Position numbers and translations under genes: made by a program. A stretch of 64,000 nt of DNA from the IMG/VR virus record IMGVR_UViG_3300022848_000005; one strand, given 5' to 3'. This stretch comes from a virus (taxonomy: Duplodnaviria > Caudoviricetes). Below are positions 24,336-40,250 of this stretch, in pieces (the first letter of the stretch is position 1; every line of letters starts with the position of its first letter). Under the pieces are notes generated by a model, which saw only the letters and a list, made by a program, of their open reading frames with translations, did not search any database and was not told the DNA's origin.

Positions 24336-25520
24336 ATGAAAACATTTAACTATGTAGAAGACTATATTATTGAATTGTATGAAGGCAGTTATAGGTTTAA
24401 TGCTAATAGTCAAGACATCGACTATCGTCTAGCCAGTTACGACATTAGAATAGTTCAAAGCATTCACAACCAGGTAACTTTCCAGAGCGTAGCACTGACA
24501 GATAAACAAGCAGAGCTCTGCGTTAAATTAGTAGAAAAATACACACGCCAATTTAAACGGGCAGGCATTGACAACTTTGCAATGCTAGAGTCAAGTACTC
24601 GGAAGTTTAAACTTGGCATACGCAAGGTTAATAGGGATTATAAGATCCATATCAAAGACGACCTGATACATGCTACGTTTCCCTATAACCTAAGGCTTAT
24701 TTCAGAAATAAGAAAGCGTTCAGAAAAGTCTGGGGGTGTTAGAGCCATTTGGAGTCGAACTGACAAAGTCTGGAAGTTTGGGTTTACAGAACCTAATGTA
24801 AAGTTTACTATTAGTTTTGGTCAAGATTATGATTTTGATATAGATCCTAAATTGTTAGAGATAGCCGGTAAGCTAGCCAAGCAGGACTGGGAACACTATA
24901 ATATCAAACTTGTGGAACATGATGGCAAGTACACTATACAAAACTGTCCAGTCAGTCTAAGCGAGTACGTTGACAAACACGCAGGCACTGATCTATTGAG
25001 TTTGGTAGACTACAGTGGTATCTGTGCCTACCAGGTTGACAATAACATTGCCAATCAGATTAAACAGGCTCATACTGAAACAGTAAGTGCATGTCTATTA
25101 GGCAAGCATATCTGGTTAGATCCAAAGAAACATTCGTTTAACGATATTATAAAGTATGCAGAGTTAACCGATAGATTTCCAGTAACTGTATACGACACAC
25201 TAGGAAATTTTGGACCTTTCCTAAATCAAAATATAGAAAAAACAGACAGTAACTTTAAATATCTATATAGTCGCTTTTTAAATTTGTCTGAACGTGTTGG
25301 TCCTATATACCATCATGACACGGTACTACCTGATAACTGGCCGTACAAAAACGCAGATCCTAAAACTGCTAGAATAAAAATTTATTCATCAGCATCAAAG
25401 GATATGTTTATTGACGACATACCTTTATTAGTATGTAGCCAAAATTTTAATTATGGAAGTTTGCGCATACAGATGCTTGCAAAATCTGAAAAAATAGTGT
25501 ATCATTGTGTTAAATTATGA
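24336..25520 (+). CDS. Hypothetical protein upstream of uvsW
   Basis: Long ORF; start reassigned to ATG 24336 after the hairpins. Confidence 0.7.
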   Translation: MKTFNYVEDYIIELYEGSYRFNANSQDIDYRLASYDIRIVQSIHNQVTFQSVALTDKQAELCVKLVEKYTRQFKRAGIDNFAMLESSTRKFKLGIRKVNRDYKIHIKDDLIHATFPYNLRLISEIRKRSEKSGGVRAIWSRTDKVWKFGFTEPNVKFTISFGQDYDFDIDPKLLEIAGKLAKQDWEHYNIKLVEHDGKYTIQNCPVSLSEYVDKHAGTDLLSLVDYSGICAYQVDNNIANQIKQAHTETVSACLLGKHIWLDPKKHSFNDIIKYAELTDRFPVTVYDTLGNFGPFLNQNIEKTDSNFKYLYSRFLNLSERVGPIYHHDTVLPDNWPYKNADPKTARIKIYSSASKDMFIDDIPLLVCSQNFNYGSLRIQMLAKSEKIVYHCVKL

Positions 25521-26974
25521 CAACAGCCATACTACATATCAAGGACGAAGTTAATTGCAAGATCGAAGGATTAGATTTAACAACTAGAAAAAACCTAGTA
25601 AACAAATTTAAATTTGAGATCCCCTATGCACGTTACTTACCAGCAGTCAGACTAGGTCGCTGGGATGGTAAGATCAGTTTCTTTCAGCTGAGTGGTAGCA
25701 CCTTTGTAAACTTATTGCCAGAGATTATTCCTGAACTGGAATCTGCAGGTTACGATCTAGAACTAAATGACCTGCGTGAATACAATACTAATTTTGATTT
25801 TGAGGAAGTTACTGAGGACAGTTATGCAAATATATCCTGGCCCAAGAGACATCCTGCAGAAGGTCAACCAATTAAATTACGTGACTATCAGGTTGACACT
25901 ATCAATAACTTTTTGCGCAACCCGCAATGCTTACAAGAGATAGCAACTGGTGCAGGTAAGACACTAATGACTGCTGTGCTCAGTAGTAAGTGCGAACAGT
26001 ACGGCAGAACAGTAGTTATTGTGCCTAATAAGAGTCTAGTAACACAAACAGAAGAAGACTATGTTAACATGGGCATGGATGTTGGCGTGTTTTACGGTGA
26101 TCGCAAGGAGTATACCAAGACGCATACTATATGCACCTGGCAGAGTCTAAACAGTCTGCTAAAGCGAACTAAAAACCAAGAAGCAGATATCGGTATAGGC
26201 GAGTTCTTGGAAGGTGTCGTTGGTGTTATTGTTGATGAAGTACACGGTGCTAAAGCAGACGCACTTAGAACATTACTAACAGGTGTAATGAGTCATGTAC
26301 CAATACGTTGGGGGCTAACAGGCACTATACCCAAAGAAGATTTTGAGTTTATGAGTATACGATGTAGTTTAGGTGATGTTATTAATCGTATCAGCGCAAG
26401 CGAGTTACAGGACAAAGGAGTACTGGCTAATTGTAATGTAAATATATTACAGTTAGTTGAACATACAGAATATTCAAATTATCAAAGCGAACAGAAGTAC
26501 TTGTTAGATAATACAGAAAGACTGGACTATATTGCAAGTGTAATCGAAAATATAAGACTAAGCGGTAACACACTTATACTAGTAGATAGAATTTCAGCTG
26601 GCACACGACTGTCAGAAAAGATTAAAGACGCAGTGTTTGTGCAAGGGGCAACTAAGTCGGCAGACCGCAAAGAGCAGTATGATGAAGTTGCCACCACCAC
26701 TGATAAAGTTATTGTGGCAACGTATGGCGTTGCTGGTGTTGGCATTAACATTCCCCGTATTTTTAATCTGGTTCTCATTGAGCCTGGTAAAAGTTTTGTA
26801 CGGGTTATCCAGTCTATTGGTAGGGGTATTCGTAAAGCCCAAGACAAAGACTTTGTACAGATATGGGACGTAACTTCAACATGTAAATTTAGTAAAAGAC
26901 ATTTAACAAAACGGAAGCAGTTCTATAAAGATGCTAATTATCCGTTTCAGATAGAGAAGATTACATGGCAATGA
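25517..26974 (+). CDS. uvsW: UvsW-like SF2 helicase
   Basis: ATGAGKT, VDEVH, GLTGT, QSIGRGIR; N-terminal GRWDGKI. Confidence 0.92.
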   Translation: MTTAILHIKDEVNCKIEGLDLTTRKNLVNKFKFEIPYARYLPAVRLGRWDGKISFFQLSGSTFVNLLPEIIPELESAGYDLELNDLREYNTNFDFEEVTEDSYANISWPKRHPAEGQPIKLRDYQVDTINNFLRNPQCLQEIATGAGKTLMTAVLSSKCEQYGRTVVIVPNKSLVTQTEEDYVNMGMDVGVFYGDRKEYTKTHTICTWQSLNSLLKRTKNQEADIGIGEFLEGVVGVIVDEVHGAKADALRTLLTGVMSHVPIRWGLTGTIPKEDFEFMSIRCSLGDVINRISASELQDKGVLANCNVNILQLVEHTEYSNYQSEQKYLLDNTERLDYIASVIENIRLSGNTLILVDRISAGTRLSEKIKDAVFVQGATKSADRKEQYDEVATTTDKVIVATYGVAGVGINIPRIFNLVLIEPGKSFVRVIQSIGRGIRKAQDKDFVQIWDVTSTCKFSKRHLTKRKQFYKDANYPFQIEKITWQ

Positions 26975-29272: not shown

Positions 29273-29815
29273 CTGACAACACAAAAACAAGCAGTGAAGA
29301 AGACTTTGACTGGTTCAGTAACAATGGTATTTTTATGCCAATGATCAACGACACTGGTAGGAACATTGCATATAAAAAAGCAATTGAGAAAATAGCGCCT
29401 GGCAGTATCATGTGTGACATAGGCACAGGTACAGGATTGTTAAGTATATTAGCCGCCAAAGCTGGAGCCAAAAAAGTCTACAGTATCGAAATGGACAAGG
29501 GCAGGGCTGAGTTTGCAATAAAAATAATTCAAAAACTTGGTCTTGACGATACTATACAAGTCATTAACAAAAATTTTTACAATTGCGACAGAAATGATAT
29601 CCCAGACGATGTGGATTATTTTGTTTCTGAAACAATTGGATCACAAATATTCGACGAAGAAATAATACAAATAGCCAACAAGTCAAAAGAGTAATGTAGA
29701 ACATACCATATGGGGTAGTCCTGCAAAAACAATTTTAGCCAGAGTAAGAAACACAAACGCCGATATAAAAATATGGTACGATCATAAAATAGAAAACTGG
29801 AGACTGAATTACTAA
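29269..29815 (+). pseudogene. Internally deleted, frameshifted PRMT-like paralog
   Basis: The N-terminal half stops at 29694; the +1 frame 29675-29815 resembles the C-terminus of the 27753 paralog and ends at TAATG with the next gene. Confidence 0.7.
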
Positions 29816-30315: not shown

Positions 30316-30776
30316 ATAAGTTATCAATTAAAAACGAAATGGCCATGGTTGATGGCAAGGTGCGTGATTTCTACGACGACCTTACTGAAGATGAACGTAA
30401 GAAGTTTAGTCCTTATGTACTAATGAAGTTTTCAGCAAACGTGTCTGGCAACCTGGACCTTGCTGAGTATTACTTGCGTAGGTGCAATGACACAACAAAT
30501 AAAGACTTCTTTAACATTAACAAACACCCCAAACTTCAGTGGTTATGCACAACAACCATAAGTCCTAAGATGGGAAACACATACCATTATTGGTTAACAA
30601 CTCCTAAGAACGGCAGTACCAGTAACAAGGAGCGCAAGTTCTTGCAACAGATATACCCCAATGCCAAGGAAGATGAGTTGGAGTTATTGGTGAAAATTAA
30701 CACCAAAGCCGACCTTAAGGAACACGCTCGACAACTAGGTTGGTCTGACAAAGAGATTAAAGATGCCTTTAAATAA
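30309..30776 (+). CDS. gp62-like clamp-loader small subunit
   Basis: FSPYVLMKF, HPKLQW and C-terminal YPNAKEDELELL resemble T4-like gp62. Confidence 0.6.
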   Translation: MVDKLSIKNEMAMVDGKVRDFYDDLTEDERKKFSPYVLMKFSANVSGNLDLAEYYLRRCNDTTNKDFFNINKHPKLQWLCTTTISPKMGNTYHYWLTTPKNGSTSNKERKFLQQIYPNAKEDELELLVKINTKADLKEHARQLGWSDKEIKDAFK

Positions 30777-31341
30777 ATTTCTTGGCTACAACACAAGTCA
30801 CACTGTGATTAATGGTGAACATTTTTATCAGATAAAAGACTTCCTTGATGACAGTACTCAACTGCAAATGGTTGCAGATATTGATCGCTTTAAAAGAGAA
30901 CATCAGGGAATTCATCCACATGTAGCTGGAAACTCAGTAACTGATATGCATACTCGTGAACAGTTTCAAACTACATTGTGGCGGACATTTTACGATACTA
31001 TTGTTAAGATTGTGTCAGAAATTGAGGGGCAGGAGTTGCACATAATTAACGCATGGTCAGCAACAGCACATGCAAACAATGTCGATGACTCCTACTGGCA
31101 TCAACACTTAACTGCTTATTCATTGGTGTACTATCTACGTAATTTTGATCCTGCTCATGGCACACACTGGAAACCAGCTGACGATGAGGAGTTTATGATA
31201 TTTGGTTATGAGAACAGCATATCATTTTTTACTGCCAACTGGTCACATGATGGCGTAATGCCTCGCTGGAGACGAGAGCAGTATCTAACTGAACATCCAA
31301 GGCATGTACTAGCGGCAGAGATAGCCTGGGGGCCTGGATGA
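30763..31341 (+). CDS. 2OG-Fe(II) oxygenase-like protein
   Basis: WHQH...SLVYYL...ISFF...SHDG...R pattern. Confidence 0.55.
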   Translation: MPLNKFLGYNTSHTVINGEHFYQIKDFLDDSTQLQMVADIDRFKREHQGIHPHVAGNSVTDMHTREQFQTTLWRTFYDTIVKIVSEIEGQELHIINAWSATAHANNVDDSYWHQHLTAYSLVYYLRNFDPAHGTHWKPADDEEFMIFGYENSISFFTANWSHDGVMPRWRREQYLTEHPRHVLAAEIAWGPG

Positions 31342-32072
31342 TATCACATGTTGTAGCCAACGGGTGCAGTTACATGGACACGTATACTAGAGGCCGAGGT
31401 CATGACGACCTAGCATTAAATCTGCAAATGCAAAGTGAAGACATCAGTATTACAGGCAGTGCGAACAGTAGAATTATAAGAACAACACTCAAACATAGTT
31501 ACGAGTCAGAATACAAGTCACTGTATGTTATTGGACTTACCTTTATCAGCAGAGAAGAATTACCTATTTGCCGTTACGATGAGTACTCTTTTCCTAAGGA
31601 ACAAGACATATGGGAAGGGGCGTGGTCTAATCCACAAAATCAACAATTTGGTAAGAATAGATGGATACCCCAATGGACTGATGCTGATACAAAACAATGG
31701 AAACTGTTTAGAGAAAAGTACGAAGTAGGCACCATGGTGGATAGACTAGAAAACCTTATGTACCAAATGTTGTCATTGATTGATAGTTTGACACAACGTG
31801 GACATAGCTGTATAATATATCAACAAGCAGACCATTGGTGGGACGGTATGTTGCCTGAAGAGTTCAACAGGATACGGCTATTAGCAGGACATAAAAATAT
31901 CATAGGTGATTTTAAGTGGTGTGCAATACGAGAACAACACCGAGCAGGAGTGGCATGTGTGCCTGGCGAAGAACACATTGAGGCTGAAATTCGACACAGA
32001 CAACCTGGCGAACACAAGTGGTTGAATGATTATTTGGAAACGCATATAAGAAAACATGAGTTACACCTGTAA
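31338..32072 (+). CDS. SGNH-hydrolase-like protein
   Basis: ANGCSY, TGSANSRI, C-terminal RH. Confidence 0.5.
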   Translation: MISHVVANGCSYMDTYTRGRGHDDLALNLQMQSEDISITGSANSRIIRTTLKHSYESEYKSLYVIGLTFISREELPICRYDEYSFPKEQDIWEGAWSNPQNQQFGKNRWIPQWTDADTKQWKLFREKYEVGTMVDRLENLMYQMLSLIDSLTQRGHSCIIYQQADHWWDGMLPEEFNRIRLLAGHKNIIGDFKWCAIREQHRAGVACVPGEEHIEAEIRHRQPGEHKWLNDYLETHIRKHELHL

Positions 32073-32739
32073 GTATTGTACCAAGAGCTATCGCAAGGAA
32101 TCAACACTTGCGGTACATCTTTGCGAGCCCAAACGTAGAGTACAACAAGAGTCTGAAACAGGTGTGCAGTTTGGACTCAGGGCATATAAGCGTTTTTATG
32201 AGATAACTCAAGGGTCAGCACGTACTAAAGACTACGAGGACTTTGCTAAGAGCCCATACTATATTGCATTTGTAAAGTTTGGACGTTATTGTGTAGACAT
32301 ACGTGCCATAAACTTTGTGAACTTTTGTGAATGGTTACTGAAAAACAATAAAAAGATTGACCACTGGACAAAAGACAAGTTGTACCAAGAATGGATGTTG
32401 CCCTACATAAAACGTGAACAGTCACAAGACGCACTTGAACGTGGTGTTAAAGAAATGTTGGACTATTGCGAGGAACATCCTGAACTTAAGAATGGTATTA
32501 CGGATTACTTTAGATATGCTAACAGCAATCGTATATGTCATCACATCAGCACAGGCAGAGTAAGCGCATGGCTAGTGTTTAATAGCGACAGCGGACGAGA
32601 GTTTTTAGATACATTGAATGAAGAACAACTTGCTATTGTGTATCCTTACATTGACCCAGAGTACTGGCAACGTAGGTTTATAGATTTTGTAGCAGACACA
32701 GAGTGGGTTACACAGGCACTTAAGGACATTAGGCTATGA
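32056..32739 (+). CDS. Hypothetical protein with N-terminal Zn-finger
   Basis: CKYC...HLC. Confidence 0.65.
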   Translation: MSYTCKYCTKSYRKESTLAVHLCEPKRRVQQESETGVQFGLRAYKRFYEITQGSARTKDYEDFAKSPYYIAFVKFGRYCVDIRAINFVNFCEWLLKNNKKIDHWTKDKLYQEWMLPYIKREQSQDALERGVKEMLDYCEEHPELKNGITDYFRYANSNRICHHISTGRVSAWLVFNSDSGREFLDTLNEEQLAIVYPYIDPEYWQRRFIDFVADTEWVTQALKDIRL

Positions 32740-33305
32740 AGTTTCAAGCAGATATTGACATAGACTTTGGTGCCAGAGATCGAATACTCGAACACATTAA
32801 ACATATTCCTGCCAGCATATATCGCAATGAAGAGTTTGTGCCGCATAACACAGGCGTGTATGTAAATAATATACCACAACACCCAATAACTAAGTTAGCA
32901 AGCATTGACCATAAAGAAGCAGAACAGCGTGGTTATGTTAAACTAGACTTTCTAAATGTTAGTGTGTATCAGCAGATTCAGTCAGAAGAAGAGCTTGATG
33001 TGTTAATGGCCACAGAGCCTCCCTGGGCTAGATTACAAGACCCAGAGTTTGTAAAGAACATCATACATATCAGCAACCATTATGATATTGTTCAAAAACT
33101 AAAACCTCAGACTGTTGATGAGATGGCGGCTGTACTAGCAATCATACGTCCCAGTAAACGGTATTTGTTAAACAAAGACTGGGCGACTATTAATCAGGAA
33201 GTATGGACTACACCCAGAGATGGCAGTTACTACTTCAAGAAAAGTCATGCAACTAGTTATGCATATCTTGTAATAGTGCATATGAACTTGTTAAATATGA
33301 TATGA
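32736..33305 (+). CDS. Miniature DnaE (family C polymerase) palm-like protein
   Basis: ADIDIDF, HNTGVY, KLDFLN, FKKSHATSYA match DnaE PDxDxDF, HAAGV, KxDFLG, FNKSH motifs. Confidence 0.8.
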   Translation: MKFQADIDIDFGARDRILEHIKHIPASIYRNEEFVPHNTGVYVNNIPQHPITKLASIDHKEAEQRGYVKLDFLNVSVYQQIQSEEELDVLMATEPPWARLQDPEFVKNIIHISNHYDIVQKLKPQTVDEMAAVLAIIRPSKRYLLNKDWATINQEVWTTPRDGSYYFKKSHATSYAYLVIVHMNLLNMI

Positions 33306-34237
33306 AAATCTATATTGATCACGTAGCTGAGTGTATGCAAGATTTTGTTGAGTATACTCTAAACACTGTTTTTGTTACCGGAAATTTTAGTATCACTTTG
33401 GCGCAGACGAGGTCAATGCAAGAACGTATCTTTTCAGTTAACAATGCCACACTAAACAATCTGGATGGTGATAACAGAATCTATATCGAGTTTACTCAGG
33501 AAGACCTTTTACATATATCACAGATATCGTTAAATCTGCCTAAAAGAATAAGATTAGGATCGGAAGGGGATCTGTCTGTAGATACAATCAGTAAGTTATC
33601 CAACAATTATTATCAACAAGCTCTAGACGATATTATAAAACTAACTGACGTTATACCAGACTTCTACAATGAAGTAAAAGGATCTGATTGGCCCAATATT
33701 AAGACTATTACAGAATTTTACGAACTACCAGTTCACATTGTTGACGAATGTGCTAAACAATTTGGGTTCTCTCCTAAGTTGTTAACCAAGGAATATCCCG
33801 ACGCCAGTGGACCTCTACTGCGTAAGTACTTTACTAACTGGTTCTCCGGAGTTAACCCATTTATGCAAAAACAAGATGAGGTTGTGTACACAAGCAATCA
33901 AAACGTTTACAAGTTACCGTTTTTAGATATCTTTAATACTGATAACATGTTGCAACACATAGATGATATTGCAAAACAGTTTGGGTTAACATTGGTGGAT
34001 AAGAAAGAACTGTCTAGGAATCTCAAGGATTCACGACACTTTCACGAAACTTTTGTGAAAAGACAGCAGTGTGTGGGATTAAAGAAAGAGGTAGACGACA
34101 TATTAGAACAGTCTAGGGGTGTGCGTATTGATTTAACAATAATGCAGGAATCTTACTTAAATGCAAAATTAGGAGGAGTACTGACAGATTTGCCCCGTAT
34201 AGACAACACATCTATAATTTTTGATGCTATTGGGTAG
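33302..34237 (+). CDS. Hypothetical protein
   Basis: ORF track; KGSDWP motif. Confidence 0.6.
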   Translation: MKIYIDHVAECMQDFVEYTLNTVFVTGNFSITLAQTRSMQERIFSVNNATLNNLDGDNRIYIEFTQEDLLHISQISLNLPKRIRLGSEGDLSVDTISKLSNNYYQQALDDIIKLTDVIPDFYNEVKGSDWPNIKTITEFYELPVHIVDECAKQFGFSPKLLTKEYPDASGPLLRKYFTNWFSGVNPFMQKQDEVVYTSNQNVYKLPFLDIFNTDNMLQHIDDIAKQFGLTLVDKKELSRNLKDSRHFHETFVKRQQCVGLKKEVDDILEQSRGVRIDLTIMQESYLNAKLGGVLTDLPRIDNTSIIFDAIG

Positions 34238-34607
34238 GTTTTCGTACTAGTGTTATTGCCCTACGTTTTGTTCGTTTTAAACTTAGGTTTTTAAGACTCA
34301 ACTGAGGACCATACTTAATAACAACGTCTTTGCTGTTAAACGTTTTAAGGAATACCTTAAATACTTTCCAGTCGTTTTTTAAAAACACATTAATAGGCAT
34401 TAATCTATTAGATTCCCACCACCAGGAATCTGCCAGTTCTAAGAATTGTAGACGTTCTTCAGGGGACTTTAACGCAGAATAATCATATAGCGTGGTAATA
34501 ATTTCATCGTAATTTTGTATTATGCCGATGTAATCGTTGCCTCCATAGACAACATAACTCAAAAAAGGATATTTGTCTAAGAGTTGATGGAATTTGTTGT
34601 CTGTCAC
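34227..34607 (-). CDS. Hypothetical protein
   Basis: ORF track (to 34637); GTG 34607 is the likelier start. Confidence 0.65.
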   Translation of the reverse strand: MTDNKFHQLLDKYPFLSYVVYGGNDYIGIIQNYDEIITTLYDYSALKSPEERLQFLELADSWWWESNRLMPINVFLKNDWKVFKVFLKTFNSKDVVIKYGPQLSLKNLSLKRTKRRAITLVRKPTQ

Positions 34608-34609
34608 AA

Positions 34610-34615
34610 TAAATA
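34610..34615 (+). promoter_or_regulatory. Late promoter core TAAATA, leaderless
   Basis: 4 nt upstream of ATG 34620. Confidence 0.55.
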
Positions 34616-34619
34616 CAAT

Positions 34620-35378
34620 ATGCAATTCATTACTCAATATTTATATAGGCAAAAGATACCTTGCCAAATAGTAGAACTTTTGGACACCAACAGAAGGACA
34701 GTCAGTGTGTATAATAGAGACATAAAAGCCTACCGTGGGGTAGCAAATAAATTCTTAATCGAAATTAAAAACCAAGATCAGAAACCCATTAATATCAGCG
34801 ATCGTACAATTAAGTTAAATGTGCTAAATCCAGAGACTAATTCGGTTTATAGCACAACCACTGCCATTATTCATAGTGCCAGTAAAGGTCAGGCACTAGT
34901 GACACTAGATGACAATAACTTACTGGACTTACCTGCTACCTATTACAATTACACCGTGGCAGTAACAAGTGGTGAGGGTAATGACGAGATTGCATATGCT
35001 GACGACAACTATGGGGTGCGTGGCACACTGCAAGTATTAGATGGTCACTATCCAACGTTTACAGCCTCAACTGAGCTCACTGTTAATGCTGATAGTAATG
35101 TAACAAGTTATGTTATCAGTGACAAGAGTTCCAACCAGGGTAGTAAGTTGCATACTGCGGCATTTTACCTAAGCAACTATACAGGTAATATCCTTATTGA
35201 AGGCACACTGGACGATACTCCAAACTACGCTAGTGCAAATTACTTTACCGTACAGACAAAAACATATGCCAGTGCAACAGGTACGTACTATGCAACCTGG
35301 ACAGGTAACTATAGAGCTGTAAGGTTCACTCAAGTAAAAACTTCAGGGAGTATAACCAAAATACTATATCGTGGCTAA
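34620..35378 (+). CDS. Putative beta-rich virion structural protein (BppU N-terminal-like)
   Basis: Thr/Ser/Asn-rich beta-strand pattern; late promoter. Confidence 0.5.
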   Translation: MQFITQYLYRQKIPCQIVELLDTNRRTVSVYNRDIKAYRGVANKFLIEIKNQDQKPINISDRTIKLNVLNPETNSVYSTTTAIIHSASKGQALVTLDDNNLLDLPATYYNYTVAVTSGEGNDEIAYADDNYGVRGTLQVLDGHYPTFTASTELTVNADSNVTSYVISDKSSNQGSKLHTAAFYLSNYTGNILIEGTLDDTPNYASANYFTVQTKTYASATGTYYATWTGNYRAVRFTQVKTSGSITKILYRG

Positions 35379-36093
35379 ACGTATAGTATGTTTTGGCGAC
35401 AGTTGGACTTACGGATCAGATTTAGTTGATCCTGCACTTGTTCCTAAATTAGAAAGTGAAGGTTACGGCGTTGACGACGCTGAATACAAATACTTTCACG
35501 AAAATCTTCCTTACAGAGAAGAACATAGATATTCCAGTCTACTCGAAAAAGCATTAGGTACTCCTGTTTTAAATTTATCTAAACCTGCCGATAGTTTAAT
35601 AGGTATGCGTGTTAAATTTATAGAATGGGTGCACCAGCAACCCAAAGATTGTTCAGACAGTCTAATAATATTTGCCACAACCTCACATGAGAGATACAGT
35701 TTTTACTCAGCAAAGGACAAGCAATGGCTAAGCAGTGGCTACTTGCAATACGGTGATCAGCACCAGCCTTTAGTTGAACACTGGAAAAGACATTTGGTGC
35801 ATAGCAGTGGTCCAGAACTGCATGATTATACGTTATTGGATTTTGTTATGTCATCAAGAGCACTTTGTAAAGAACGTAATATGAAATGGGTGTATGCTCC
35901 TGTTTTTCCAAAACGCACTCAAGGCAACATCGACGACAAGTTTGTTACAGAATGGAGTATGATGGATGTATGCACACACCGAGCAATGGAAGGACATAAA
36001 GTCTGGGCATGGGGAGAACATCCCAACGAGCTTGGTCACCAATTTATAGCAAAATACTTGATAAGTTTTATGAAAGAGTGTAAACTTATATAG
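35371..36093 (+). CDS. SGNH-hydrolase-like protein
   Basis: CFGDSWTYG block I; C-terminal EHPNELGH. Confidence 0.6.
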   Translation: MAKRIVCFGDSWTYGSDLVDPALVPKLESEGYGVDDAEYKYFHENLPYREEHRYSSLLEKALGTPVLNLSKPADSLIGMRVKFIEWVHQQPKDCSDSLIIFATTSHERYSFYSAKDKQWLSSGYLQYGDQHQPLVEHWKRHLVHSSGPELHDYTLLDFVMSSRALCKERNMKWVYAPVFPKRTQGNIDDKFVTEWSMMDVCTHRAMEGHKVWAWGEHPNELGHQFIAKYLISFMKECKLI

Positions 36094-37118
36094 TGAATAT
36101 TATACAGCAAACAGTCTTAGATAAATTGCCCTCAAAACGCAAGACAGCACCAAGTGGCTGGACTAGCTTTAATGCACAGTGCTGTACACATTTAGGCCAT
36201 AGTCAAGACACCAGAGGTAGGGGCGGTATTATAACTGCACCAGACGGTTCGATATCCTACCACTGTTTTAACTGTAATTTTAAAAGCACCTGGCGTCCAG
36301 GGTGGCATTTTAACTTCAAGTTTCGTAGACTGTTATCCTGGTTTGGGGTAGCACAGAATGATGTACAACGTTTGGTGTTTGAAGCCATGCGTATCAGAGA
36401 AGAGCTTGTTGATGTTGTTGAAGAGATTGACAAACAGCAGGAAAAAATAGAGTTCGACCCAAGGCCACTGCCTGAAGAAAGTGCAGATATTAGACAAGTT
36501 GCCACAATGATGGCATTAGATCCCAATTACGAAATAACTCAGAACTTCAGAGATGTTGTCGGCTATGCAGTTGAGCGAAAGATTAACACACAACGCTATC
36601 CTATATTTTATAGCACCAGCAGTAATGTTAATATGGATAGGCGAGTTATTATACCGTTTACCTGGCAGGACAAGATAATAGGATATACTGCAAGAGCAAT
36701 GGATCCCAGCATAAAGCCCAAGTACTTTAACAGTTATGATAGCAATTATGTATTCAATACAGATGCACAAACCAAGGACACCAAGTTTGTTATTGTGTGT
36801 GAAGGTCCTTTTGATGCAATGGCAGTTGATGGAGTTGCTATATTAAGTAATAACATAAACGACACACAGGCTGAAATAATTGATAGGTTGGGTAAACGAG
36901 TAATTGTGGTACCAGACTTTGATCGAGCAGGACAGCGTATGATACAAGACGCAATAGAATATGACTGGGAAGTTAGTTTCCCTACATGGTCAGAAACCTG
37001 TAAAGATGTTGGAGAAGCGGTACAACGATATGGTAAATTATTTGTAGTAAAAAACATCTTAGATAACGCACAGGCAAGTAAACTAAAGATTAATTTAATG
37101 CGTAAAGCAATAAAATAA
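36093..37118 (+). CDS. DNA primase (DnaG-like, Zn finger plus TOPRIM)
   Basis: CC..H...HCFNC; VCEGPFDAM; VPDFD. Confidence 0.88.
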   Translation: MNIIQQTVLDKLPSKRKTAPSGWTSFNAQCCTHLGHSQDTRGRGGIITAPDGSISYHCFNCNFKSTWRPGWHFNFKFRRLLSWFGVAQNDVQRLVFEAMRIREELVDVVEEIDKQQEKIEFDPRPLPEESADIRQVATMMALDPNYEITQNFRDVVGYAVERKINTQRYPIFYSTSSNVNMDRRVIIPFTWQDKIIGYTARAMDPSIKPKYFNSYDSNYVFNTDAQTKDTKFVIVCEGPFDAMAVDGVAILSNNINDTQAEIIDRLGKRVIVVPDFDRAGQRMIQDAIEYDWEVSFPTWSETCKDVGEAVQRYGKLFVVKNILDNAQASKLKINLMRKAIK

Positions 37119-38879: not shown

Positions 38880-40250
38880 ATGAAGAATTACAGTGCAGAT
38901 TTACAAAAACTATTTTTAGAAATGATGATGGCAGACGCTCAAATGTTTGTGCGTGTTGGAAACATCTTTAACCCTGCTAACTTTGATAGAAGTCTACAGG
39001 ACACAGCCAGGTTTATACAAGAGTACACAGACAAACACAAGTCTCTGCCTAATAAAGATCAGGTAAAAGCAACATCTGGTGTAGAGCTTAAAGACGTTGG
39101 TGAAGTGCAGGAAGCACAACATGACTGGTTTCTAGAAGAATTTGAAGGATTTAGTCGCAGACAAGAACTTGAACGTGCCATACTGAAGGCGGCTGACTAC
39201 TTGGAAAAAGGTGACTATGATCCTGTTGAGAAATTAATTAAAGACGCAGTACAAATTAGTTTAACAAAAGATCTAGGCATAGACTATTTTGAGGATCCTA
39301 AGGCTAGACTTAGTTTACTAAGGGACAACAACGGACAAGTAAGTACAGGCTGGCCCACACTGGATAAGAAACTGTTTGGTGGCTTTAACAAAGGCGAGTT
39401 AAACATCTTTGCTGGTGGCAGTGGTAGTGGTAAGAGTTTGTTTATGCAAAACCTTGCTATTAACTGGATTATACAAGGACTTAACGGGGTATTCCTAACA
39501 CTAGAACTTAGTGAAGGCTTGTGTGCTATGCGTATAGACAGCATGTTGTCTAATGTCAGCACACGTGAAATATTTAAAGAGATCGATACTGTGGAGATGA
39601 AGATCAAAATGGTTGGTAAGAAGTCAGGTAGCCTACGCATCAAGTACATGCCGGCACAGAGCAACGTTAATCAAATTAGAGCGTACTTGAAAGAACTGGA
39701 AGTACAGACAGGACAAAAAGCAGACTTTATCATGGTAGACTATTTGGACTTGGTTATGCCAGTTAGTGCAAAGGTAAGTCCAAGTGACTTGTTTGTTAAA
39801 GACAAGTATGTGAGTGAAGAACTACGTAATCTAGCAAAAGAATTTAACATACTGATGGTAACCGCATCACAATTAAATCGCAGTGCGGTTGAAGAAATAG
39901 AATTTGATCATAGCCACATATCTGGTGGGTTAAGCAAAATAAATACTGCTGACAACGTGTTTGGTATATTTACGTCAAGAGCAATGCGTGAACGTGGACG
40001 ATATCAGATACAGTTAATGAAGACTCGTAGTTCTAGTGGTGTTGGACAAAAGATTGATTTAGAGTACAACATGGAGACGCTGAGAATTATCGACGCAGGT
40101 GAAGAAGAGCAGACTAACCAACGACAATCGGGTATTATGAATCAAATAAAAACAAAATCATCAACAACTACAGAAGCACCCAAGGTCACAGCTCAAGTCG
40201 ATAGTTCTAAGCTCAAGTCTATGTTGGCTGGGCTGAGGAAAGTTGAATAA
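38880..40250 (+). CDS. Replicative helicase (DnaB/gp41-like)
   Basis: GGSGSGKS, LELSE, VDYLDL, TASQLNR, MKTRSS. Confidence 0.93.
   Translation: MKNYSADLQKLFLEMMMADAQMFVRVGNIFNPANFDRSLQDTARFIQEYTDKHKSLPNKDQVKATSGVELKDVGEVQEAQHDWFLEEFEGFSRRQELERAILKAADYLEKGDYDPVEKLIKDAVQISLTKDLGIDYFEDPKARLSLLRDNNGQVSTGWPTLDKKLFGGFNKGELNIFAGGSGSGKSLFMQNLAINWIIQGLNGVFLTLELSEGLCAMRIDSMLSNVSTREIFKEIDTVEMKIKMVGKKSGSLRIKYMPAQSNVNQIRAYLKELEVQTGQKADFIMVDYLDLVMPVSAKVSPSDLFVKDKYVSEELRNLAKEFNILMVTASQLNRSAVEEIEFDHSHISGGLSKINTADNVFGIFTSRAMRERGRYQIQLMKTRSSSGVGQKIDLEYNMETLRIIDAGEEEQTNQRQSGIMNQIKTKSSTTTEAPKVTAQVDSSKLKSMLAGLRKVE

Follow-up and report, generated by a model that had tools for sequence, protein, structure and literature searches.

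In a large uncultured phage, an open reading frame of 189 codons carries the motifs of the bacterial replicase DnaE in their usual order. This raises the question of whether such a gene encodes a complete miniature enzyme, one part of a divided enzyme or a remnant. The original prediction described it as a mini-DnaE that retains three catalytic aspartates and left two options, namely a piece of a split polymerase or a stand-alone minimal nucleotidyltransferase. The window analysed here is the whole stretch of 64,000 nt and corresponds to positions 197,450-261,449 of a record of 289,070 bp that is ~80% complete. The analysis favours, with a probability of about 85%, the reading that the encoded protein (hereafter the C piece) is the C subunit of a split minimal DNA polymerase III alpha (Pol III alpha) and needs an N subunit (the N piece) encoded elsewhere in the genome.

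The idea of such a split polymerase is already known. A two-gene split minimal Pol III alpha was recognized from sequence in the T4-related group 2.2 jumbo phages RaK2, 121Q, PA5oct and Atu_ph07, and a possible part in making one of the strands or in repair was proposed for it (Iyer, Anantharaman, Krishnan, Burroughs and Aravind 2021, Viruses 13:63; PMC7824862), and the present gene is another member. Earlier, the genome paper on phage CBB listed a 'truncated' Pol III alpha of 172 aa, which is the N piece. No experimental study of split Pol III alpha was found in the literature searched, and the text of the PA5oct omics paper gives no temporal expression at the level of genes. Besides one more member and neighbourhood statistics, the present analysis adds natural fused forms (375-376 aa) that link the two halves, and shows that the neighbour starting at position 33302 is a local insertion. 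Coordinates are compiled in Table 1.

Table 1. Genes and sites discussed in the text, in window coordinates unless stated otherwise
Feature	Position	Strand	Remarks
UvsW-like helicase	25517-26974		Upstream of the C piece block
Extra ORFs, 192 aa and 244 aa	30763-32072		Within the replication block; the latter in 3/86 loci
Sigma-70 consensus site	31788-31816	+	TTGACA, 17 nt, TATAAT; perfect (12/12)
Zinc-finger protein, 227 aa	32056..32739	+	phrog_11058, E 6.8e-54; weak zf-C2H2 match, N-terminal
C piece, 189 aa, ATG start	32736..33305	+	Intact ORF; phrog_11778
311-aa gene	33302..34237	+	Lineage-specific insertion outside the conserved block
Small gene, 136 aa	34227..34637	-	phrog_11637, E 1.6e-31; present in 83/86 loci
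264-aa gene	34584..35378	+	phrog_14467, E 2.5e-10; 78/86 loci
GDSL/SGNH-like gene, 240 aa	35371-36093		Extra gene before the primase; 1/86 loci
DnaG/Toprim-type DNA primase	36093..37118	+	phrog_47, E 2.1e-41; Toprim_2; downstream end of the block
Radical-SAM protein	37118-38236		Extra gene between primase and helicase
DnaB/gp41-like helicase	38880-40250		phrog_19, E 1e-72
N piece, 175 aa, GTG start	G000:C1:9998-10525, outside the window		PF07733, phrog_11127

Homology of the C piece to family C polymerases

The C piece gene sits in a tightly packed string of same-strand genes. Its start overlaps the stop of the zinc-finger gene (ATGA), and the 311-aa gene in turn begins before the C piece gene has ended. 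All the motifs on which the original prediction was built could be located in DnaE order within the 189 aa, i.e. DIDIDF at residues 6-11, HNTGV at 37-41, KLDFL at 69-73 and FKKSH at 167-171. The N-terminus, MKFQA, extends 5 residues ahead of the DxD motif. The protein contains a palm beta-sheet, the three catalytic carboxylates D6, D8 and D71, the lysine K69 and reduced fingers with the motifs IRPxKR and YYFKKSH.

Among PHROG families, the C piece is assigned to phrog_11778 ('DNA polymerase'; E 5.5e-61), with residues 2-187 covering profile positions 4-192 of 197, and it also matches the DnaE family phrog_405 of 1190 positions (E 2.5e-6). Pfam returned nothing significant, the best related match being DNA_pol3_finger (E 0.12). 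A profile search of PDB sequences gives a weak match (E 0.79), in which four stretches are collinear with E. coli alpha: residues 5-22 with 402-419, 41-77 with 528-561 (placing K69 and D71 on K553 and D555), 114-140 with 615-641 and 163-178 with 752-767. In this numbering, DIDIDF corresponds to D401-F-D403-V-D405-F of the E. coli enzyme, IRP to FRPG at ~639 and FKKSH to FNKSH at ~756-760, and the carboxylates D6, D8 and D71 are collinear with D401, D403 and D555. Comparison of the C piece family profile with a full-length bacterial DnaE by hhalign gives E 0.0021. Since similarity to solved or full-length DnaE at the level of sequence is weak, the case for homology is built on the PHROG profile, the collinearity of the motifs and the match in predicted fold.

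A structure prediction had been proposed as a check on the original prediction, and its outcome agrees with a polymerase origin. The AlphaFold2 model, computed from an alignment of 34 sequences, has a mean pLDDT of 92.8 and a pTM of 0.82, and it matches only C-family polymerases. In a Foldseek search of the PDB, the top 19 matches all belong to family C, namely DnaE of Taq, E. coli and M. tuberculosis together with PolC. Superposition with VIA-align places 184-187 of the 189 residues at Z 9.6-9.9 and rmsd 3.3-3.7; the model spans residues 397-778 of E. coli alpha, 458-835 of Taq alpha and 968-1293 of PolC, and the next unrelated chain after the family C polymerases reaches Z 3.4.

The C piece thus shares with bacterial DnaE (PDB 2HNH, 3E0D) and PolC (3F2B) a Pol-beta-like palm with three carboxylates and the lysine, and it keeps RPG-like and FNKSH-like motifs in the fingers. 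Unlike these enzymes, it compresses ~380 residues (~397-778) into 189 aa. Residues 23-40, modelled as a tight beta-hairpin (E24-30, E33-42), replace E. coli residues 420-527, i.e. ~18 residues stand in place of ~108, and from the alignment and the model the thumb appears to be deleted. Similarly, the fingers are predicted to be shortened, with 22 residues between the RPG and FNKSH motifs instead of ~110 in E. coli.

The family is very abundant, and throughout a large clade of giant phages it has a fixed place in the replication module. Full-length homologues with 31-49% identity were found by tblastn in 96 isolate phage genomes, all of large or jumbo phages, including RaK2, 121Q, PBECO4, GAP32, PA5oct, Atu_ph07, Phosso, XacN1 and SCTP-2. 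The best isolate match has only 49% identity, and among the family members compared the isolate proteins lie at 36-49%. In metagenomic protein collections, the family comprises at least 7,961 clusters when grouped at 90% identity; grouped at 50%, it has 528 representatives, of which the complete ones are nearly all 185-215 aa long, and >568 loci occur in IMG/VR. Given the strong match to phrog_11778, the number of homologue clusters and a fold match restricted to family C, the resemblance of the motifs is not due to chance.

Conservation was assessed on 283 homologues aligned to the family profile, with counts taken among the sequences covering each position. D6 and D8 are present in 260/260 sequences each, D10 in 252/260 and D71 in 271/273, and the lysine K69 has no exception (273/273). 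In the HNTGV motif, H37 occurs in 264 of 265 and G40 in 263 of 265 sequences; in the fingers, the counts are 248/252 for R138, 250/251 for P139, 238/246 for K168 and 240/246 for H171. Judged from this alignment, the catalytic residues are under strong purifying selection, the opposite of the relaxed selection on the aspartates that the original prediction had held up as grounds for abandoning it.

The partner gene and the relation of the two halves

The GS nucleotide-binding motif (GRGSGAGS) of the family is absent from the 189-aa protein. A search of the record for other DnaE parts and for a family B polymerase, also proposed at the outset, recovered both. A search of the whole 289-kb record with PF07733 found the gene of the N piece ~220 kb from that of the C piece on the linear record, and a full family B polymerase (PolB) lies in an open frame of 891 aa. 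The N piece matches PF07733 above the Pfam cut-off (E 3.6e-11, profile positions 12-94) and phrog_11127 with E 1.5e-39. It bears the GS motif as GVGRGSS, and GxGRGSS is invariant across N pieces. The description of the C piece as a mini-DnaE is therefore right as to the carboxylates but not as to a whole enzyme: with the GS motif on a separate gene, the C piece is half of one.

Matches to phrog_405 in the record are confined to the N and C genes and cover profile positions 358-434, 577-678 and 779-809 of 1190. Clamp-binding or other DnaE parts besides these two genes were not found in the ~80%-complete record, which also gave no match to a PHP domain (PF02811), a beta clamp or a DnaQ-type exonuclease.

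The division between the halves is clean. When 13 N pieces are combined into a profile, it covers E. coli alpha 320-392 in an ungapped alignment, at a marginal E of 0.012; the single N piece sequence has no match to solved DnaE. The C-terminus of the N piece (...HNLDYTEFLR) places EFLR on E. coli residues 388-393, and the same EFL(K/R) end point recurs in all N pieces examined. The N piece thus ends at ~393 and the C piece begins at ~397 in E. coli numbering, with nothing lost or duplicated. Taken at the level of sequence, the whole enzyme would be a minimal core of ~364 aa and not a cut-up full-length dnaE. It differs from DnaE and PolC in that the half of the palm with the GS motif is a separate polypeptide and in that PHP, clamp-binding, OB and tau-binding domains are missing.

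The N piece has features of its own. Its residues 1-95 (G000:C1:9998-10282) are without a DnaE counterpart in the profile matches, PF07733 starting at residue 93, and these first ~95 residues are conserved among N pieces (e.g. F69, D70, Q74, W77, P80 and Y83). In the region around its gene (G000:C1:9382-11418, L001:606-2642), a 208-aa ORF without a family match lies upstream, its stop overlapping the GTG start of the N piece. Downstream lie a phrog_14844 gene and then a gene for a GroES/gp31-like co-chaperonin (phrog_931, phrog_3188), a setting unlike that of the C piece gene in the replication module.

The two halves occur together across the clade. The three CheckV-complete uncultured relatives tested (354-364 kb) each carry a single N gene and a single C gene, 41-180 kb apart; an N piece but no C piece was found on two partial contigs of 40-46% completeness, as expected of fragments. 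Counts of isolate genomes with each half are 34/34 for Escherichia, 11/11 for Pseudomonas, 8/8 for Salmonella, 8/8 for Erwinia, 4/4 for Xanthomonas, 4/4 for Yersinia and 11/10 for Klebsiella. As in the group 2.2 enzymes (121Q gp16, PA5oct EST35_0220 and Atu_ph07 gp074, all of phrog_11778), the split point is the same, the N subunit gene is far away and the C gene has the same neighbourhood; as in those phages, PolB and T4-like replication genes are present and other Pol III domains are not. The present phage also differs from the group 2.2 isolates and their relatives. It is an uncultured 289-kb phage in which the halves lie ~220 kb apart, instead of 31-43 kb in most enterobacterial relatives, and extra genes are inserted around its C piece (starting at 30763, 31338, 33302 and 35371).

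A further link comes from proteins in which both halves are joined. In the fused protein P0173 (375 aa), residues 190-371 match the C piece profile with E 4e-48, and residues 77-180 share 34% identity with the N piece of the present genome (E 1e-20). P0272 and P0273 (376 aa) are two more fusions from independent assemblies, with 78-81% identity to P0173. In all three, which come from metagenomic ENA/Logan contigs of 2.4-5.9 kb, the N part ends in ...KEFIK and is followed by a linker of 10 residues and by the C part from D(F/L)D(I/V)D onwards. Fused forms are rare, amounting to three clusters as against thousands of split forms. A word-index search for longer C piece homologues (332-2000 aa) returned none, and it was an exhaustive profile search that led to P0173; none were recovered from IMG/VR, and a scan of JGI metagenomes gave only one C piece of the ordinary kind plus two genes for full-length bacterial DnaE. 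The AlphaFold2 model of the natural fusion is poor, with a pLDDT of 65 and values <50 in the palm sheet. Rare as they are, the fusions constitute sequence-based 'Rosetta stone' evidence for joint action of the halves in a single enzyme. Two other proteins of 540-551 aa, P0285 and P0286, were considered as a second kind of split and rejected, being truncated fragments of ordinary DnaE.

Cyanobacterial DnaE offers a precedent for a family C polymerase made from two distant genes (DnaE-n and DnaE-c), joined there through a split intein. The phage enzyme differs from it in the site of the split and in that its halves contain no intein. Trans-splicing by a split intein was rejected, since neither the EFLR end nor the MKFQA start leaves space for an intein half, and since the fusions P0173, P0272 and P0273 need only the 10-residue linker. 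Without intein halves at the split ends, reassembly of the two chains must be non-covalent.

Proposed assembly and possible activity of the two-chain enzyme

In the proposed mechanism, the C subunit would supply the metal- and template-binding part, i.e. the entire palm beta-sheet with the three carboxylates and the cut-down fingers, and the 175-aa N subunit the nucleotide-binding helical layer with the GS motif. The two proteins would dock non-covalently, without an intein, to form one Pol-beta-like active site in a core of ~364 aa devoid of PHP, thumb, clamp-binding and OB domains. Such a complex would probably polymerise DNA distributively, with no proofreading, thumb or contact to a clamp, and would most likely carry out short, template-directed synthesis beside the main family B replicase. 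As the C gene is fixed beside primase and helicase genes, the enzyme could serve in extending primers, in filling gaps or in repair.

How far this goes is a matter of degree. Templated and processive synthesis is not assured, because the thumb and the clamp-binding regions that hold the duplex in DnaE are missing. On the sequence evidence, template-directed DNA polymerase activity of the complex has a chance at or just under one half. The fuller proposal, in which the heterodimer is a genuine polymerase that works with the zinc-finger protein and the primase/helicase in dedicated primer extension or gap filling beside PolB, is tentative, its odds lying slightly on the unfavourable side.

The same deletions would also suit a two-piece enzyme that puts the Pol-beta-like fold to a new use other than conventional copying of a template, as a template-independent terminal transferase, in the synthesis of RNA or primers, or in making a nucleotide-derived product. 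Of the domains by which DnaE holds its primer-template DNA, namely thumb, clamp-binding and OB, none is present; a full PolB is already available to the phage; and nucleotidyltransferases of the Pol-beta fold are functionally very diverse. Such an activity is nevertheless unlikely, considering that the fingers motifs common to DnaE and PolC (IRPxKR and YYFKKSHAxxYA) are nearly invariant and that the C gene is part of the replication module, with the UvsW-like helicase gene on one side and the primase and helicase genes on the other.

Much less probable is that the C piece works alone, without the N piece, as the minimal nucleotidyltransferase that formed the second option of the original prediction. 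The confident fold of the isolated chain (pLDDT 92.8), the presence of the three carboxylates and K69, and the great distance to the N piece gene speak in its favour; against it stand the lack in the C piece of a GS motif that is invariant in the N piece, the co-occurrence of the two families and their fusion in three natural proteins. The N piece, the co-occurrence and the fusions are likewise what bore out the first option, a piece of a split polymerase, and the missing GS motif is what told against the second.

Hardly credible is a decaying remnant, a fragment of full-length dnaE produced by a sequencing error or an inactive structural relic: the C piece is indeed very short compared with DnaE and only weakly similar to cellular DnaE in sequence, but a length of ~190 aa is kept in thousands of homologues, the catalytic residues are essentially invariant, the surrounding genes are intact and syntenic, and DnaE fragments are found neither in the flanks nor elsewhere in the ~80%-complete record except for the intact N piece. 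An artefactual split of a dnaE gene, which the original prediction had named as a possible source of error, was rejected on that conserved length and on the absence from the record of the PHP and C-terminal parts of DnaE.

Should the N and C subunits of split Pol III alpha rebuild an active enzyme, that enzyme, at ~364 aa, would be smaller than any other family C polymerase and would be a natural case of an active site formed by two separately encoded chains without an intein, with a bearing on the evolution of the bacterial replicase and on polymerase engineering. In that case, the fusions of 375-376 aa would amount to minimal polymerases of family C in finished form, and would serve as a model of the ancestral bacterial replicase.

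Gene neighbourhood of the C piece

The surroundings of the C piece were compared at 86 related loci; IMG/VR supplied 80 of them, isolates three and complete uncultured genomes the other three. The conserved order is homologues of the genes starting at 29815 and 30309, the zinc-finger gene, the C piece, a reverse ORF, a structural gene and the primase. In the annotations of Atu_ph07, PA5oct and 121Q, a UvsW-like helicase lies upstream of the same block and a gp41-like helicase downstream of it, and the window follows this layout with its own UvsW-like helicase, primase and DnaB/gp41-like helicase (Table 1).

In 80 of the 86 loci, a homologue of the zinc-finger gene precedes the C piece, and the product of this gene is a candidate accessory factor for the C piece. 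An Atlas search with this protein yielded only unannotated viral clusters of the C2H2 type. On the other side, the 311-aa gene that follows the C piece in the present genome encodes a protein with no match in Pfam or PHROGs and has a homologue in only one of the 86 loci, at a different position. In the relatives, it is the homologue of the small reverse gene that directly follows the C piece (the arrangement of Atu_ph07, PA5oct and 121Q). Relatives of the 264-aa gene are annotated as virion structural proteins, in PA5oct by ESI-MS/MS and in 121Q. The primase is present in 56/86 loci; many loci of the set end before its position.

The replication block of the present genome also contains extra genes: two ORFs ahead of the zinc-finger gene, the GDSL/SGNH-like gene and the gene of the radical-SAM protein (Table 1). 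Promoter-like sites in the region are not above the number in shuffled sequences (33 versus 30.9). One of perfect sigma-70 consensus (12/12) nevertheless stands out; it lies inside the 244-aa ORF (31338-32072), ~240 nt upstream of the zinc-finger gene, and from its sequence could drive the zinc-finger and C piece genes.
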